Shown here: positions 12,959 to 19,273 of the stretch, in pieces
Numbering within the stretch: the stretch's first letter is position 1
How the letters are laid out: every line of letters begins with the position of its first letter
IMG/VR virus record: IMGVR_UViG_2791354774_000003
Strand: one strand, 5' to 3'
Origin: a virus
Taxonomy: Duplodnaviria; Caudoviricetes
DNA: 64,000 bases
Program-made: the position numbers and the translations under genes
Notes under the pieces: model-generated
Databases searched by the model: none
Told to the model about the DNA's origin: nothing
What the model saw: the letters and a program-made list of their open reading frames with translations, nothing else

Positions 12959-13270
12959 TCAGATCGTCACGAAATAGAGGTGCGATGTGGCGCCGAGGCC
13001 ATCAAAGGTCGGGATCTCGCCGGTATCGCGGTCGGTCGTCACCACCAGCGCTCCTGGCCAGTCCATGTGCGCGTGCTGGGCGAGCAGATCGACGCCCGGA
13101 ATGAGCGGCACGCCGGCAAGGAGGAGCGCGCCGCCCTGGTCGCCAATGTCGAGCGTCCAGCCGCCCTCGTCGGCATCGTTGAACATCAAGCGCATTCGGT
13201 AAGACACACCACCGAGCGTGATGGAAAATGACTGCGCCTCAGGCGTCAGCGGGATTTCGACGATCGCCAC
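12959..13270 (-). CDS. Baseplate plug protein
   Basis: QSFSITLGG...GWTLDI...GVPLIPGVDLLAQH. Confidence 0.8.
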   Translation of the reverse strand: MAIVEIPLTPEAQSFSITLGGVSYRMRLMFNDADEGGWTLDIGDQGGALLLAGVPLIPGVDLLAQHAHMDWPGALVVTTDRDTGEIPTFDGLGATSHLYFVTI

Positions 13271-13273
13271 AGA

Positions 13274-14053
13274 TCAAGATCCGAAGACATTATAGGGGTC
13301 CGCGTAGACGCCCCCGGCGCCTGCCGAAGGGCTGCTTCCCACCACACTCTGTTCAGGCAGCGTCACCTCAAGCGGCCCGCCCGAGCTGATGCCGTCCAAG
13401 CCGAATTGGTTAGGGCTCAGGCCGAACGAGCCATTTCCGTCTGTGCCGAAGCCACCTGGAGAAAAGCTTGGATTGTTCGGGTTGAAGTTCGGCTGGGCGG
13501 CGCCGATGAATTCTTGGTTGCCGACGCCGACGCCCTGTTGCTCGCCCTTATTCTGCACGCTACCCGTGGACTCAGGATTGGCCTGCGCACTCTGCGAACC
13601 GCCGGCCGTCGTCGTGCTCGTGCCCGTACCCGTCGTTTTAGTAGAGACGATGATGATCTGCTGGAGCCGCACCGCGACAGCCAGCACGTTCTCTGTCCTC
13701 GCCTCCGTCGTCACGCCAAGATCGGCGATGAGCATGTCGCGGTAGGCGCGCTTGCCGGTATAGACGCTAAACGGCTGCCGCGAGGCTTGGAGGCGCCTTA
13801 GCGCGTCGTAAACCTGCCTCGCATACCCCGCATCGCCGTGGGACGAATTGGAGAACCCGCACCGCATCTCAACCTCGGCAGGCCGCAAGAATGCGTGATC
13901 GGTGATCGCCGCGCCCTTCTCCACGGGGTGCTGCGTGATGATGAGGCTGTCGCGGTGGGTTTCCTCGATCACGACATCGGGGATGATGCCACCGATGGAC
14001 CGCGAGGACGTAGAGATCAGGGCGTAAGTCAGCTCGCCAAGAAGGGCCATCAA
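13274..14053 (-). CDS. Dit-like / tube-initiator baseplate protein
   Basis: EETHRDSLIITQHPVEKGAAITDHA motif. Confidence 0.85.
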   Translation of the reverse strand: MMALLGELTYALISTSSRSIGGIIPDVVIEETHRDSLIITQHPVEKGAAITDHAFLRPAEVEMRCGFSNSSHGDAGYARQVYDALRRLQASRQPFSVYTGKRAYRDMLIADLGVTTEARTENVLAVAVRLQQIIIVSTKTTGTGTSTTTAGGSQSAQANPESTGSVQNKGEQQGVGVGNQEFIGAAQPNFNPNNPSFSPGGFGTDGNGSFGLSPNQFGLDGISSGGPLEVTLPEQSVVGSSPSAGAGGVYADPYNVFGS

Positions 14054-14063
14054 CGAAACCCGC

Positions 14064-14116
14064 GTATCACGAGGCGATACAAAATTGTTGACGTGGATGT
14101 ATCATCGTGCGATACA
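14064..14116 (+). promoter_or_regulatory. higBA promoter with two palindromic operators
   Basis: GTATC-N7-GATAC at 14064-14080 and 14099-14115 flanking TTGACG (14088-14093). Confidence 0.7.
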
Positions 14117-14142
14117 TGGGCCGTTCAGACGCGAGCTGCCAC

Positions 14143-14427
14143 GTGGCGATCCAGAGCTTTCACGACAGCCTGACCGAGACAGTGGCGCAAGGTCTGCGCC
14201 CGAAGGGTTTCCCGGCCGACCTGTTCAAGGCGACGCGGCGTAAGCTGGCAGCCTTGAACGCCGCTGAGACCCTGGAGGACCTTCGCTCGCCGCCCGGCAA
14301 TCGGCTTCACGCCTTGGAGCGCGACCGCGCCGGCCAGCACGCGATCCGCATCAATGATCAATTCCGTCTCTGCTTCGTCTGGACCGAAGCCGGGCCGGAG
14401 CGGGTCGAGTTCACCGACTATCACTGA
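14143..14427 (+). CDS. higB: HigB (RelE/ParE family) toxin
   Basis: LRSPPGNRLHALERDRAGQHAIRINDQFRLCFVW...DYH. Confidence 0.93.
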   Translation: MAIQSFHDSLTETVAQGLRPKGFPADLFKATRRKLAALNAAETLEDLRSPPGNRLHALERDRAGQHAIRINDQFRLCFVWTEAGPERVEFTDYH

Positions 14428-14465
14428 CCGCCCGTCACCACTCCGCCGCCACGGAGATCCGTCCG

Positions 14466-14816
14466 ATGACCGCTTATCCGCCCCTTGCCGAACTACGCGC
14501 CCTCGACCTCACTCAGATTGAGGAGATCACATCTCCCATCCACCCCGGCGAAATCCTCCGGGAGGAGTATCTCGTGCCGCTCAACCTGTCGGCCGGCGCC
14601 GTTGCTCGCGCCTGCGGCGTGCCGCGCACCCGCATCGAGCGGATCGCAACGGAGGAGACCGGGATTTCGACCGACACGGCGCTGCGGCTCGGGCGTTACT
14701 TCGGCACCACCCCCGCGTTCTGGCTCAACCTTCAGCGCAAGTACGAAATCGACGTCTTGGACCGCGAGATCGGGGCAGAGATCGCTGCGATCAGACCGTT
14801 GGAGACGGCTGCATGA
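14466..14816 (+). CDS. higA: HigA antitoxin (XRE HTH)
   Basis: PIHPGEILREEYL...ALRLGRYFGTTPAFWLNLQ. Confidence 0.93.
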   Translation: MTAYPPLAELRALDLTQIEEITSPIHPGEILREEYLVPLNLSAGAVARACGVPRTRIERIATEETGISTDTALRLGRYFGTTPAFWLNLQRKYEIDVLDREIGAEIAAIRPLETAA

Positions 14817-15058
14817 GTGTTGGCACCGTCACTTTGGATCAGGCGCCACCGCGCGATCTCGACGTGGTGCGCCTGCTGTCAGATGCCGTAGGAGACGAAG
14901 GCGAGCGCATACCGTCTGGGTCTGAAGGTACGGTCGTGCATGTCGTCAATCTGGGTGACACCTACGTGGTCGAATTCGATGTCCCAGCTTTAGGTACGCT
15001 TGCAACGGTAGGCGCTCAAGCCCTAGCGGTCGTGTGGCTGGTATCGTCCATTAAGTGA
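14813..15058 (+). CDS. DUF4926-like SH3-fold protein
   Basis: LDVVRLL...IPSGSEGTVVHV...YVVEF. Confidence 0.7.
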   Translation: MSVGTVTLDQAPPRDLDVVRLLSDAVGDEGERIPSGSEGTVVHVVNLGDTYVVEFDVPALGTLATVGAQALAVVWLVSSIK

Positions 15059-15060
15059 GT

Positions 15061-15114
15061 GACGAGGGCGGCACCTCTCGGCTGGGGCGCGCTGATACAT
15101 CGGCCGCCCTCGCC
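15061..15114 (-). ncRNA. TIGR-like stem-loop guide unit 6
   Basis: GGCGAGGGCGG CCG ATGTATCAG CG CGCC CCA GCCGAGAGG TG CCGCCCTCGTC. Confidence 0.8.
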
Positions 15115-15138
15115 TCACCGCCGAGGCGGTGTCTGCGA

Positions 15139-16119
15139 TTAGTGGGTGAGAGCGGCGCCTGCCATTTGGGTGCCGTCCATCAGATGGCCACCCTCACCCT
15201 TCCTCCATTGGGACCAGAGGTCCCGGAGAAATCGCTTCTCGACGTAGCGCTGCGCCCGATTGTGCGCGTGCGCCTTGGTCTCGACCCGTTCGGCCTCGTA
15301 GACCTTCCGTGCGTCGTAAATTACCTTGAGCGGCCCGCCAGCCTTCACGATGCAGGCACCGAGGTTCCACATCACCGAGCGCCGAGCCGGGCTGTACCCG
15401 TGGTCAAGCGCCTCGACACCACCGACACGCCGCTGCCGGCCGCCATCAGGCATCACGGCCAGCCCCATGCGCTTCCATAGTTTGGCGGGATTGCCGTAGG
15501 AGCCGAGATCCCCAGCCTCGCCGACGATGGCCGCCAGAGACAGCAAGCCGACGCCGCGTGTGGCCTCAACCCACGGCGCGACGGGTAGCCCCTTCGCCAA
15601 GGCCACTAGCCGCTTCTCAACAGCCCTGCGGTGGCGCTCGACACCATCTCGGGCTTCGGTCAGAGGAAACATTGCAGCCAGGGCAACCTCACCCATGGGA
15701 TGAGAGCCTTTGCCGATGGCGGCACCGTAGATCTTGTCCGCTTCCTTTTTGTCGCCGCCCTCAGCGAGGCGACGGCACAGGGCCTTTGCCTGCAAGGTCA
15801 ACGACTTCTCGGCGCGGTGCCACGCCTGCCGGCGCCGCCATTGTTCACGGACCTCTGCAATAAGGTCGGCGAGGTCGGCAGGGGGTAGTTGGATAACGCG
15901 TCTGCCATGGCCGGCCTCGCCTTCGCCGGCCTCACGGTCGGCGATCTCGGTATCATGGGCGACGAGGCTGGCAGTGGTTGTATGGGTGCCACGAAGGCAC
16001 TGGCCAGCCTCGTCATCGGCGTTACCGCCGATTGGGTAAAGGGGTGCGGTGGGCGACGCATCGTGATGGGGTGGCAGATGTTCAACGGTCGCCCGACCGC
16101 GCCGGGACGTGCCCGGCAT
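15139..16119 (-). CDS. TasA-like Nop / IS110-C-terminal-domain RNA-binding protein with no RuvC or HNH nuclease
   Basis: Coiled coil followed by RGVGLLSLAAIVGEAGDLGSYGNPAKLWKRMGLAV; no DEDD domain; the only nearby in-frame ATG with an RBS is at 16119; flanked and overlapped by guide-like units. Confidence 0.8.
   Translation of the reverse strand: MPGTSRRGRATVEHLPPHHDASPTAPLYPIGGNADDEAGQCLRGTHTTTASLVAHDTEIADREAGEGEAGHGRRVIQLPPADLADLIAEVREQWRRRQAWHRAEKSLTLQAKALCRRLAEGGDKKEADKIYGAAIGKGSHPMGEVALAAMFPLTEARDGVERHRRAVEKRLVALAKGLPVAPWVEATRGVGLLSLAAIVGEAGDLGSYGNPAKLWKRMGLAVMPDGGRQRRVGGVEALDHGYSPARRSVMWNLGACIVKAGGPLKVIYDARKVYEAERVETKAHAHNRAQRYVEKRFLRDLWSQWRKGEGGHLMDGTQMAGAALTH
15144..15199 (-). ncRNA. 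TIGR-like stem-loop guide unit 5 (inside the 3' end of the TasA-like ORF)
   Basis: GGGTGAGGGTGG CCA TCTGATGGA CG GCAC CCA AATGGCAGG CG CCGCTCTCACCC. Confidence 0.8.
15868..15921 (-). ncRNA. TIGR-like stem-loop guide unit 4
   Basis: GGCGAGGCCGG CCA TGGCAGACG CG TTAT CCA ACTACCCCC TG CCGACCTCGCC. Confidence 0.8.
15961..16014 (-). ncRNA. TIGR-like stem-loop guide unit 3
   Basis: GACGAGGCTGG CCA GTGCCTTCG TG GCAC CCA TACAACCAC TG CCAGCCTCGTC (perfect 11-bp stem). Confidence 0.85.
16046..16100 (-). ncRNA. TIGR-like stem-loop guide unit 2
   Basis: GCGGTCGGGCGA CCG TTGAACATC TG CCAC CCC ATCACGATG CG TCGCCCACCGC. Confidence 0.75.
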
Positions 16120-16126
16120 CTCTGAA

Positions 16127-16651
16127 TTACTCCGCGAGGCCACGTGCCGCCTCCTGCAATTCGCGCAGGCGCCGATCGGTGAGCACATCGCCAGCCGTCT
16201 TGTCGCCCGGCACAGACTGAGCCACGAGGCGCAGCCAGCGCGCCTTGACCCCCATATCCGTTGCCTGCGCATCGTAGAACTGCGCGGCCTCTGCAATCTC
16301 CTCTCGGGTCGCCTCACCGAGCTTCTTGCCGCCGGGGAGCGGGAACATGAGGAGCGTGCCAGCCGCGAGTTGCACCACGCGGTGCGAACCGTTCGTGCGG
16401 TTGGCGACCAGCTTCTCGGCCGGCGGGGTCCACACCTTCCGGCGCTCGACGCGGCACTGTGCGGTCACGGCGGCGTAGCAAGCGGTCGAGAGAAGTGGGT
16501 CGGTCAGATCGTCTCGCAGACGACGGTTGTTGCGCACGGACTGCTCCAGGGCGCGGGTCGCCTCACGCACATCGCCGTTCGCGGCTTCCAAAGCGGCACG
16601 AGCCGCCTCGGCAACGAGATCTCTTTCCTTGGGCTTTGCTGAAGCGGCCAT
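16127..16651 (-). CDS. Hypothetical helical protein (174 aa), candidate Tas partner
   Basis: GGAG RBS plus ATG (MAASAKPKERDL...); lies between guide units 1 and 2, directly upstream of the TasA-like gene. Confidence 0.75.
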   Translation of the reverse strand: MAASAKPKERDLVAEAARAALEAANGDVREATRALEQSVRNNRRLRDDLTDPLLSTACYAAVTAQCRVERRKVWTPPAEKLVANRTNGSHRVVQLAAGTLLMFPLPGGKKLGEATREEIAEAAQFYDAQATDMGVKARWLRLVAQSVPGDKTAGDVLTDRRLRELQEAARGLAE

Positions 16652-16782
16652 GTCGGGTCTCCACGGGCGCCGGCCCGCCAGGGCCTGAAGCGCGTACAGG
16701 TGGTCGGAAGCGACCGCCGGCACCCGTGAAGTCGGGGAACTCGGGATCGCGCTTGATACCGCCCTGGCGGGGCGGGATAGGT

Positions 16783-16836
16783 GCAGACGACGACAGAACG
16801 GTATTGGGCGGCACTGCCGATACGGTCGTCGTCCGC
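16783..16836 (-). ncRNA. TIGR-like stem-loop guide unit 1
   Basis: GCGGACGACGA CCG TATCGGCAG TG CCGC CCA ATACCGTTC TG TCGTCGTCTGC. Confidence 0.8.
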
Positions 16837-16860
16837 TTCCGTCTTCCGACGGATCTGCGA

Positions 16861-17262
16861 TTAGGATTGGCGCCAGTCGTAGCCGACAGCACTCAGAACG
16901 AGCGCCGCTCGGGTCGTTGGGCAGGCTGCGCGGCAAAAATAATCAACCGCGTCGCTGCCCTTGGGCACCCACTGCAAGTACGGCAACTCGCGGGTGTCTT
17001 GAGCGCAGGCCTCCGGAAACCCCGCCGGCATCGTCACCCCCTCTCGGGATAGAGAAGCAGCGCGCGCAACCGCTTTTCGATAGGAGTGCTGCGCCAGGAT
17101 CTCGCGATGCTTATGAACGATGAAACCGAGATAGGCATCGAACAGTCGGTCAGTGACGGGCTCGGCAACAGCCGTTGGCGAGCCGATGAGAGTGACGCCA
17201 CCTCCGATCAAAGGCAGTGTCGTGAGGCCGCGAAGGAAACCGCGCCGGGAGTGGTTGGACAT
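16861..17262 (-). CDS. Hypothetical protein with a twin-arginine-like N-terminus
   Basis: MSNHSRRGFLRGL; GAGG RBS. Confidence 0.65.
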   Translation of the reverse strand: MSNHSRRGFLRGLTTLPLIGGGVTLIGSPTAVAEPVTDRLFDAYLGFIVHKHREILAQHSYRKAVARAASLSREGVTMPAGFPEACAQDTRELPYLQWVPKGSDAVDYFCRAACPTTRAALVLSAVGYDWRQS

Positions 17263-17274
17263 TGCCCCCTCCCC

Positions 17275-17574
17275 TCAGTTCGCGGTCTTGGCGCGAGCGG
17301 TGCGCGCCGTCTGCCACGCAGCTTTGAGCGCCACCGACATGGCCTCGCCCCAGCTATCGCCGAAACGATCCTGATGCGCCTTCGCGGCGAGAACGGCTGC
17401 CTTCATGATTGCGGCGCGGTCGAACTGACCGTTCACGACCAGCGGACGGCGCTGGAACTTGACAAAAACCTCAACCCGACCGCGAGCGCCGAGGAAGCCG
17501 GCGGGTACCTGTTGGCGGTCGGCGCGGAGGCCGGTGAGAGCGGAGGACCAAGAGAGTTGGCGGCGGGAAGACAT
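17275..17574 (-). CDS. Hypothetical protein, first gene of the TIGR/Tas operon
   Basis: ORF just downstream of the TTGACA promoter; N-terminus resembles the 49367 ORF. Confidence 0.65.
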   Translation of the reverse strand: MSSRRQLSWSSALTGLRADRQQVPAGFLGARGRVEVFVKFQRRPLVVNGQFDRAAIMKAAVLAAKAHQDRFGDSWGEAMSVALKAAWQTARTARAKTAN

Positions 17575-17592
17575 GGACGTTGGCCCCATTTC

Positions 17593-17659
17593 TGTGCTAC
17601 CAGCACAATATGAGGCGCCGTAAAGGTGCTGTCAACACAAAAATGGTGCCATTAGCACA
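17593..17659. promoter_or_regulatory. Divergent promoter region with three 15-bp operators
   Basis: TGTGCTACCAGCACA (17593), GGTGCTGTCAACACA (17625), GGTGCCATTAGCACA (17645); minus-strand TTGACA-N17-CATATT at 17635-17607. Confidence 0.75.
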
Positions 17660-17925
17660 TGACTGAGACCGATGGGCGAACGGTGGTTCTCACCGTTGAG
17701 CAAATCCGGATGGCTAAGGCCGCCCTCGGCTGGTCAAATCCTATGATGGCTGAGATGACCGGCCTCCATCGAAACACCCTCAACCGAGCCGAGAACGGAG
17801 AGGCGAAGAGATCAACCCTTGAGCTTTTACGACGGGTGTTCGAGCAAGCCGGTCTAGAATTCATTCCCGCTAATGGCGGCGGCCCTGGCGTGAGGCTTCG
17901 GGAGAACGCCGAGAGCGCGAACTGA
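17659..17925 (+). CDS. XRE-family HTH repressor
   Basis: LTVEQIRMAKAALGWS...TLNRAENG...FEQAGLEFI..NGGGPGVRL. Confidence 0.9.
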   Translation: MTETDGRTVVLTVEQIRMAKAALGWSNPMMAEMTGLHRNTLNRAENGEAKRSTLELLRRVFEQAGLEFIPANGGGPGVRLRENAESAN

Positions 17926-17926
17926 C

Positions 17927-18163
17927 GTGCCGCGCAACGTCGAGCCGTTTTCCTTCTGGCGCTGGCTTGTCCGCAGCCTGTGGCTTTTCGTCATTCGCAG
18001 CGGTGCGGTCTTTGGCGCCCTGAGTACCTATCTCACCGTGTTCGGCGTCGAAGACGCCTACACCGACGTGATCAAGGACTACCGCTGGGAACTCGCGATT
18101 GGGCTCGTCCTCGCCCTTATCGTGAACCTGATGTACGATTGGGAGTGGAGCAAGGAGCCGTAG
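17927..18163 (+). CDS. Small two-TM membrane protein (moron)
   Basis: Two hydrophobic segments; coupled to the repressor gene. Confidence 0.55.
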   Translation: MPRNVEPFSFWRWLVRSLWLFVIRSGAVFGALSTYLTVFGVEDAYTDVIKDYRWELAIGLVLALIVNLMYDWEWSKEP

Positions 18164-18736
18164 ATGCCGACGCCCGTCCTTGTCGCCTTGGCGGTTTTAA
18201 TCGCCTACCCGTTGATCCAGATCGTTGCGATCCGCCTACGCCGCGCTGATCGCTTGGCTTTTCGCGCCCTGATTGACGAGATGAAGGCCGACCCTGCCTA
18301 TCAGGGGAAGCCAGAACAGGACGCGCTCAACCAGATCGACGACGACGCCTATGGCTCGCCGGTTGTTGCGCTCACGCCGATCATCCTTCCAATCATGGTG
18401 ATCGCCGACATTCTGGCTCCTCGGCTCGAAGAGGATGCGATCCCGAGCCCCGATAGGCCCCGCTCTATCGTCTACGCATTTGGGACGCTACGCCACGTGC
18501 CTGCATCGTCCCCCCTTTGGGATGATGACAGACTGCCCGTCGCACTTAGGCTGTCGGTCAAGCTCTGCTTTGAAACGTGGCCCGTTTCCACGTTCCTCGC
18601 AGCCGTTCTAGCTGCGCCGTTCGCAGCCCTTGAAGCCATCCTTCGTTGGGTTCGCACGAACACACTAGAGCACCTGAGCGCGTACAAGGTCGGGCTGCGA
18701 CTGTGGCACGTCTTCGGCGCGTTTGGGGCGCGCTAA
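18164..18736 (+). CDS. Membrane protein (moron)
   Basis: Several hydrophobic segments; ATG abuts the upstream stop. Confidence 0.6.
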   Translation: MPTPVLVALAVLIAYPLIQIVAIRLRRADRLAFRALIDEMKADPAYQGKPEQDALNQIDDDAYGSPVVALTPIILPIMVIADILAPRLEEDAIPSPDRPRSIVYAFGTLRHVPASSPLWDDDRLPVALRLSVKLCFETWPVSTFLAAVLAAPFAALEAILRWVRTNTLEHLSAYKVGLRLWHVFGAFGAR

Positions 18737-18745
18737 TCAGCCAGC

Positions 18746-19273
18746 CTACGGTGTCATCACGCCGGCCGTGACGCCTGCCATAACCGTGCCCGCGAGCAAG
18801 CTTCCCCAGGCTGTCCACACCGCCATGCGCGTCAGCTTCGCGCTCCGGTGGAGGACGGCCTGATTGCGGCCTATGCACCGGGAGCTGTCGGCCAGAGCCT
18901 CTGCCTTTGAAGTGGCGAGCGGCTTGGCATCCTTTACGTCGTCAACCCACCCCTCGGGATCATTGCCGACGTAGGAAAAGGCATCCGGCATCGCCGCCCG
19001 GTTTGCGAGGAACATAGCCCCTAACAGGCCAGCGACAGTGAGTAGGCCAGCCCATGCGAATGGAGCAGCAGGTGCATTCGTGGCCAGCGCCGCGATGCTG
19101 GCGCTGCCGATCACGGCCGAGGCGGCGGCCAAAAAGCCGAAGAAGGTCATTGCCCGCTGATTGCCCGCCAAGGCCACCGTCAACTGCGCGCTAAGATAAG
19201 CGTCGGCATCTCGCTTGATTAACTCCAGCGTGTCATCGTCCGCACGCGAAAGGCTCTCGGCGATGTCAGACAT
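18746..19273 (-). CDS. Three-TM membrane protein, Pycsar-effector-like topology
   Basis: Helix, two TMs, soluble linker, C-terminal TM. Confidence 0.5.
   Translation of the reverse strand: MSDIAESLSRADDDTLELIKRDADAYLSAQLTVALAGNQRAMTFFGFLAAASAVIGSASIAALATNAPAAPFAWAGLLTVAGLLGAMFLANRAAMPDAFSYVGNDPEGWVDDVKDAKPLATSKAEALADSSRCIGRNQAVLHRSAKLTRMAVWTAWGSLLAGTVMAGVTAGVMTP

Follow-up and report, generated by a model that had tools for sequence, protein, structure and literature searches.

Four of the six guide units predicted in the window, by which we mean the whole 64,000-nucleotide stretch of DNA analysed here, lie within the minus-strand reading frame of a TasA-like (TIGR-Tas) protein (U2-U5, inside 16143..15139). 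This frame, which ends at 15139 with the terminator TAA 15141-15139, is likely to be dual-coding, that is, translated through the guide hairpins while the same RNA doubles as guide precursor, the frame being kept open for a ribosome that enters upstream. To judge from their sequences, relatives have neither stops nor frameshifts in the Tas frame across arrays of 1 to 10 units, and that frame begins at a conserved Shine-Dalgarno sequence and start codon located where the upstream partner gene ends. The features of the locus are as follows.

15139..16143, minus strand: proposed coding sequence of tasA, running from GTG 16143 to TAA 15141-15139 (334 aa and a stop)
16119..16117, minus strand: ATG proposed earlier as the start, with GGAG 10 nt upstream
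16150..16155, minus strand: Shine-Dalgarno sequence AGGAGG for GTG 16143, at a spacing of 6 nt and within the 3' end of the upstream gene
15202..15870, minus strand: conserved core of Tas, made up of a coiled coil and a Nop-like RNA-binding domain (residues 84-306 in the 326-aa reading), from profiles, AlphaFold and Foldseek
16127..16651, minus strand: conserved upstream partner gene, 174 aa, the last codons of which overlap the tas start
16836-16783, minus strand: unit U1, upstream of the partner gene and outside the tas frame, first box CCG
16094-16051, minus strand: unit U2, degenerate, inside the frame, boxes CCG and CCC, a stem of 6 bp and then a bulge
16017-15958, minus strand: unit U3, canonical, inside the frame, 13 paired bases, CCA-N9-TG, GCAC, CCA-N9-TG
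15921-15868, minus strand: unit U4, canonical, inside the frame, its 3' arm coding for the first core residues ADLA
15199-15144, minus strand: unit U5, canonical, coding for the C-terminal tail, with the stop codon 2 nt beyond the unit
15116-15059, minus strand: unit U6, untranslated, 3' of the tas stop codon, first box CCG

The protein was matched by the NCBIfam profile NF052498 'TIGR-Tas system RNA-guided endonuclease' (TIGR_Tas_endo) over residues 152-306 with an E-value of 6e-26 and a score of 91.7 bits, which lies under the curated cut-off of 100. In addition, it was matched by the TasR chain of PDB 9mty (E 1.2e-11) and by PHROG 4285 ('transposase'). A Pfam search returned no significant family and no HNH or RuvC nuclease domain. 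In an AlphaFold model built with 34 homologues, residues 80-309 form an all-helical core of high confidence, with pLDDT above 85 over most of that range. When this model was compared with the PDB by Foldseek, the best 10 matches were all TasR/TasH complexes (probability 1.0, target-normalised TM 0.51-0.67), and the next were IS110-family recombinases and Nop5/Prp31. The two marks of a Tas protein, a Nop-type RNA-binding domain and a coiled-coil dimerisation region, are both present; as in the TasA subtype, there is no Pfam domain, and everything outside the coiled coil and the Nop core is modelled as disordered. Because a nuclease domain is absent, we assign the protein to the TasA type, and the locus is a prophage-borne, nuclease-less, stem-loop TIGR-Tas system of that type. 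Tail-like and baseplate-like open reading frames and a HigB/HigA pair lie nearby, as in a prophage, and a genome search found the protein only sporadically, in 3 of 401 genomes of the order, the window's own included. By analogy with the characterised TasA proteins in the available text of Xu et al. (bioRxiv 2026, doi 10.64898/2026.09.09.750476), the complex would bind DNA and repress transcription.

A stem-loop tigRNA, as described in the available texts of Faure et al. (Science 2025, PMC12045711) and Xu et al. (2026), is a palindromic stem round two spacers of 8-12 nt, each flanked by a box C (CCA and variants) and a box D (TG or CG). We scanned both strands of the whole 64 kb for CCN-N9-YG-N4-CCN-N9-YG enclosed by a stem of 6 or more pairs. 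The loop pattern alone matched 32 times, and exactly six matches were stemmed, all of them on the minus strand at 15059-16836. These six dual-spacer units are the sole stemmed matches in the window, and their stems, of 6-13 pairs, differ from unit to unit, as befits a stem-loop architecture. In U3, U4 and U5 the boxes match the consensus, the spacing is exactly 9-4-9 and the stem has 10-13 pairs; in the other units four boxes depart from CCA (one in U1, both in U2, one in U6). U2, which may be decayed, has more pairs past its bulge, to about 16100/16045, seen by eye and also in the centroid fold. A CTT within about 7 nt 3' of the stem was seen by eye at U2, U4 and U6 and is absent from U1, U3 and U5.

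A loose unit scan gave 18 matches in the window against 2-16 in shuffles and is thus unspecific, whereas the strict pattern with a stem is specific; a pattern with the exact linker gave two matches at zero mismatches, both at the tas locus, and at 2 mismatches gave 4 matches against a mean of 3.06, no excess over chance. Rfam returned only chance matches below threshold at 13000-19000, Tandem Repeats Finder detected no array, which is unsurprising where stem-loop units have variable stems, and a generic repeat finder did not resolve the units. Box C is often translated as xxC CAN, giving His or Gln; the idea that this codon phase is fixed in the close clade was dropped, since U2 and many units of distant loci use other phases. 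We also observed a motif, TAAT(C/T)(G/C)CAGA, before U1, U2 and U6 (16852-16863, 16120-16130 and 15130-15141, minus strand). Its TAA is each time the stop of the preceding open reading frame (a 133-aa frame at 16861-17262, the 174-aa gene and tas), and it is followed each time by a small leader hairpin and then the unit; the in-frame linkers of tas carry a related motif without the TAA.

Within the window alone, the open Tas frame is not beyond chance. The DNA is GC-rich, and a second frame is open as well, stop-free for 148 codons upstream of the core and through U2-U4, and any significance therefore comes from relatives only. We compared 64 related loci (7 genomic, 35 metagenomic and 22 viral), which together with the window and after removal of 13 duplicates gave 52 distinct sequences; L080-L083, new in a second and mostly repeating viral scan, and L066-L067 were left out. 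After five further loci had been dropped, with frame 0 at the locus edge or less than 300 nt upstream, the remaining 47 had, upstream of the core, a median stop-free stretch of 115 codons in the Tas frame versus 25 and 24 in the other two. The Tas frame was the longest in 38 of the 47 (Wilcoxon p 1.3e-6 and 1.4e-8, values that overstate independence because the loci are mutually related).

The gap between the stop of the upstream partner gene and the core gave a similar result. This gap measures 60 nt or more in 41 loci, where it spans 79-888 nt and 0-10 units were detected; in 34 of them it is open from end to end in the Tas frame, as against 8 and 4 in the other frames. Three long gaps are open in the Tas frame alone: 820 nt with 7 units in L036, 704 nt with 10 units in L041 and 653 nt with 6 units in L061. 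Furthermore, among the 24 close loci (core at least 64% identical) the gap length is 1 mod 3 in 22, over at least 19 different lengths. The frame is not kept open across the gap in 7 of the 41 loci, and the intragenic arrangement is for this reason not obligatory. One metagenomic relative, L037, stands apart: its frame above the core continues into an apparent GMP-synthase-like N-terminus, lacks units and has an ATG 5 codons ahead of the core, which suggests a different genomic context of a close homologue.

The spacers themselves were then considered in 86 distinct units from 38 loci, picked by position only (at most 750 nt upstream of the core). A stop codon occurs in 3 of these units in the Tas frame (frame 0) and in 21 and 37 in frames 1 and 2, and the three exceptions (in L018, L058 and L064) all lie upstream of the open frame. 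When the letters of 83 units were shuffled inside each spacer, a mean of 14.6 units had a frame-0 stop, and in 2000 shuffles the number never fell below 6. In the close clade, none of 32 units has a frame-0 stop (shuffled mean 6.05, minimum 1 in 2000). Control units, located 3' of the tas stop codon or further than 750 nt upstream, give no sign of avoidance, with a stop in 8 of 26 against a shuffled mean of 7.4, and they differ from the upstream units (Fisher p = 3e-4, which again overstates independence among related loci). No two of the loci counted have the same spacers.

Taken together, these comparisons bear on the initial annotation, which had proposed a dual-coding sequence and had named as checks whether indels between units come in multiples of three, whether spacers avoid in-frame stops and whether homologues are free of stops and frameshifts in the guide-bearing segment. 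The gap phase and the spacer counts bear out the first two of these checks, and the frame is open across the gap in 34 of the 41 loci. The dual-coding proposal itself is supported by the frame, gap-phase and stop comparisons, with its start revised to GTG 16143.

In the mechanism that we propose, translation would be coupled to the upstream gene: ribosomes would initiate at GTG 16143 and continue across the guide hairpins. Translation of the hairpins would give tails of about 87 aa at the N-terminus and about 19 aa at the C-terminus, round a core like that of tail-less relatives, and the same RNA would be the precursor of guides U2-U5. Excision of U2-U4 would part the start codon from the core and excision of U5 would remove the stop codon, so that each transcript would yield either protein or guides U2-U5, which could balance the supply of protein against that of guides (negative feedback); maturation of U1 and U6 would be harmless to the message. 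The frame would be maintained because the sole ribosome entry site lies upstream of the array, and not for a function of the tails. We put forward only tentatively the stronger possibility that read-through is a selected design, in which guide maturation and Tas synthesis would exclude each other on each transcript and the genetic code would filter spacers. If this is true, the locus has a built-in governor of the protein-to-guide ratio, and spacers that contain stops are purged, roughly one spacer pair in six being forbidden in the Tas frame.

The coupling of protein to guide output would fail if the guides had separate promoters. The frame could be dual-coding and yet the guides and the mRNA be made as separate transcripts from internal promoters, in which case the tas mRNA would not be consumed and there would be no feedback. 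In the available discussion of Xu et al. (2026), intragenic guides may be derived from the tas transcript or have their own promoters, either route being called possible on data that do not decide between them. At the present locus, a scan of 14900-17400 for promoters and terminators found none, and the count of 0 sigma-70-like promoters is a weak argument, one promoter type having been scanned; the units abut each other and the core, which leaves little space for promoters. We regard separate transcripts as rather unlikely here.

The initial annotation had taken ATG 16119, with its GGAG, as the only nearby in-frame ATG with a ribosome-binding site. The frame 16119..15139 is indeed open, U2-U4 do lie between this ATG and the start of the core at codon A84 (15870), and U5 does code for the last residues of Tas, 19 in number (GEGGHLMDGTQMAGAALT). 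In-frame TTG codons also occur at 15801 and 15795, and GTG 16143 is a better candidate. This GTG lies 8 codons upstream of the ATG and overlaps the last codons of the upstream gene (stop 16129-16127). GTG 16143 is the likelier start, because it has AGGAGG at 6 nt, because it gives the N-terminus MASRSNSEMPG, which resembles MA[S/L]...SEMPG in homologues, and because the Met at 16119 is variable, being L, I or K in several homologues. A start at GTG 16143 would place the units still more firmly within the frame. From 16119 down to 15801 there is no in-frame ATG, GTG or TTG, and the core can be reached from any of these codons only through U2-U4.

We also searched the relatives, in all frames, for GGAGG, AGGAG or GAGGC followed after 4-10 nt by ATG or GTG. 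Among 32 loci with a core identity of at least 55%, 21 have such a Shine-Dalgarno sequence and an ATG or GTG in frame with the core and open to it. These in-frame sites lie at 16 different distances, 90-438 nt from the core, as against only 3 matches in the other frames at -60 to -500.

The database gene call for the window's genome (P0011, 218 aa) begins at TTG 15795, and translation could in principle start at a non-canonical codon or at TTG 15801/15795, near or inside the core, with the U2-U4 stretch as an untranslated 5' leader. The lack of third-position GC bias in the extension, the second frame that is equally open in the window and the relatives that start right at the core are also in keeping with such a leader. 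However, the TTG starts lose at least 20 invariant residues and part of a confident helix. A start at TTG 15795 would delete E89-T108, invariant across 34 aligned homologues, together with the first 29 residues of a helix with pLDDT >90, which in the model begins at residue 80, and is not credible. Moreover, only translation explains why the gap is open in 34 of 41 loci in the Tas frame versus 8 and 4 in the others, why its phase is constant in 22 of 24, why stops are avoided in frame 0 and why in-frame Shine-Dalgarno and start sites occur at 16 distances. An untranslated leader is thus improbable, and the start of P0011 is probably mis-annotated, 116 codons short and with invariant coiled-coil residues missing.

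With translation from GTG 16143 as the preferred reading, the unit-encoded segments are modelled as disordered N- and C-terminal tails (pLDDT <50 at residues 4-74 and 310-326). In the alignment, how long the extension is depends on how many units there are; stems and linkers match its conserved islands, and spacers its variable stretches. Third codon positions have a GC content of 0.66 in the extension and 0.76 in the core, so codon bias gives no support for translation; the codon usage of the extension is shaped otherwise than that of the core, which fits dominant RNA constraints. Several relatives start 0-5 codons before the core (L025, L027, L032, L039 and L058; also P0078), which shows that the tails are dispensable. 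Entire arrays can be embedded 3' of the core too: in several distant loci the frame extends across 2-6 units 3' of the core and ends 1-21 nt past the last of them, and in L029, L032, L035 and L027 it ends 18-102 nt past the last detected unit. These 3' units were classified by the position of the stop codon and were for that reason left out as a test.

A unit at the position of U4 was found in 15 further loci, with spacers that differ in every locus. Over the 16 loci, its 11-bp stem is 96% paired versus 37-56% in slid controls, a percentage that is partly circular since the units were chosen by a scan that demands a stem; double-sided changes occur at 10 of the 11 pairs, and compensatory changes at homologous columns are not circular. 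It is improbable that the in-frame units are relics of a decayed old array that now code only for linkers and that U1 and U6 are the working guides, a reading that suits the non-consensus boxes (CCG, CCC) and bulged stem of U2, but not the intact boxes, spacing and stems of U3, U4 and U5, the compensatory changes in the U4-position stem with its ever-differing spacers, or the processed RNA recovered from an intragenic unit of BlTasA, the TasA of Bifidobacterium longum, as reported in the available text of Xu et al. (2026).

The 174-aa gene directly upstream of tas is likely an unrecognised component of this TasA clade. A homologue occupies the same position in 44 of the 52 distinct loci, down to 28% identity, and the Shine-Dalgarno sequence and start of tas sit in its last codons. 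When searched as a longer, 269-aa reading, it had no Pfam, PHROG or NCBIfam match. On the other side of tas, the plus strand at 14107-15058 carries a HigB-like toxin, a HigA-like helix-turn-helix antitoxin and a small DUF4926-like open reading frame, which are convergent to tas and end 1 nt from U6.

The central dual-coding idea has been published before, in descriptive form and with a suggested mechanism. Xu et al. (2026), in the available text, reported intragenic stem-loop tigRNAs that leave the frame intact, mapped intragenic units to disordered protein regions, suggested a link between guide maturation and Tas translation, and described the TasA type as an RNA-guided repressor. The present U2-U5, in frame and in regions predicted to be disordered, are intragenic tigRNAs in the same sense. 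A full-text literature search found only this preprint to describe intragenic tigRNAs, and in the available passages of the other literature on TasA stem-loop TIGR systems that a further search returned, embedded guides are not treated. A test of frame selection, a conserved Shine-Dalgarno sequence and start, the gap phase and the 174-aa partner were not found in the available main text of Xu et al. (2026); their supplementary tables or TIGRSafari may list the present locus or clade already. Relative to that main text, what is new here is the frame and stop statistics, the conserved Shine-Dalgarno sequence and start, the constant gap phase and the conserved partner gene. These comparative statistics make the descriptive remark of the preprint a testable claim of selection, and the 174-aa gene becomes a candidate system component that is uncharacterised in the available TIGR-Tas texts compared. 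If guides and effector share one frame, translation constrains the content of spacers; the dosage of the effector may be tied to guide processing, which bears on the evolution of TIGR arrays, the acquisition of spacers and the annotation of such loci.

Among known systems, the BlTasA of Xu et al. (2026) carries its unit in a wedge loop, as far as the available text describes it, whereas the units of the present locus form N- and C-terminal tails. The protein resembles the TasA from the Peromyscus leucopus gut microbiome (PMC12045711; Guan et al., bioRxiv 2026, in the available texts) in being a nuclease-less coiled coil with a Nop domain, and its units share with that system a palindromic stem, two short spacers, a box C (CCA) and a box D (UG). 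The P. leucopus array is described there as lying next to the gene in three subarrays. The present locus has only six units, which are dispersed; four are in frame, and each is preceded by a small leader hairpin, unlike the array in that description.

The IS110/IS1111 bridge-RNA recombinases have a related RNA-binding fold (Foldseek 9t56 and 8wt6, E about 1e-2), and PHROG 4285 points to the same likeness. The present protein differs from them in that Pfam gave no match to a RuvC-like DEDD domain or to a catalytic-serine Tnp domain, and the guides here are an array of dual-spacer hairpins, whereas theirs is one bridge RNA. Dual-function RNAs such as SgrS/SgrT and RNAIII/hld combine a coding role and an RNA role in one transcript. 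In contrast to these, the RNA at the present locus is a predicted guide for the protein encoded by its own transcript, and the guide segment appears to code for protein only incidentally.
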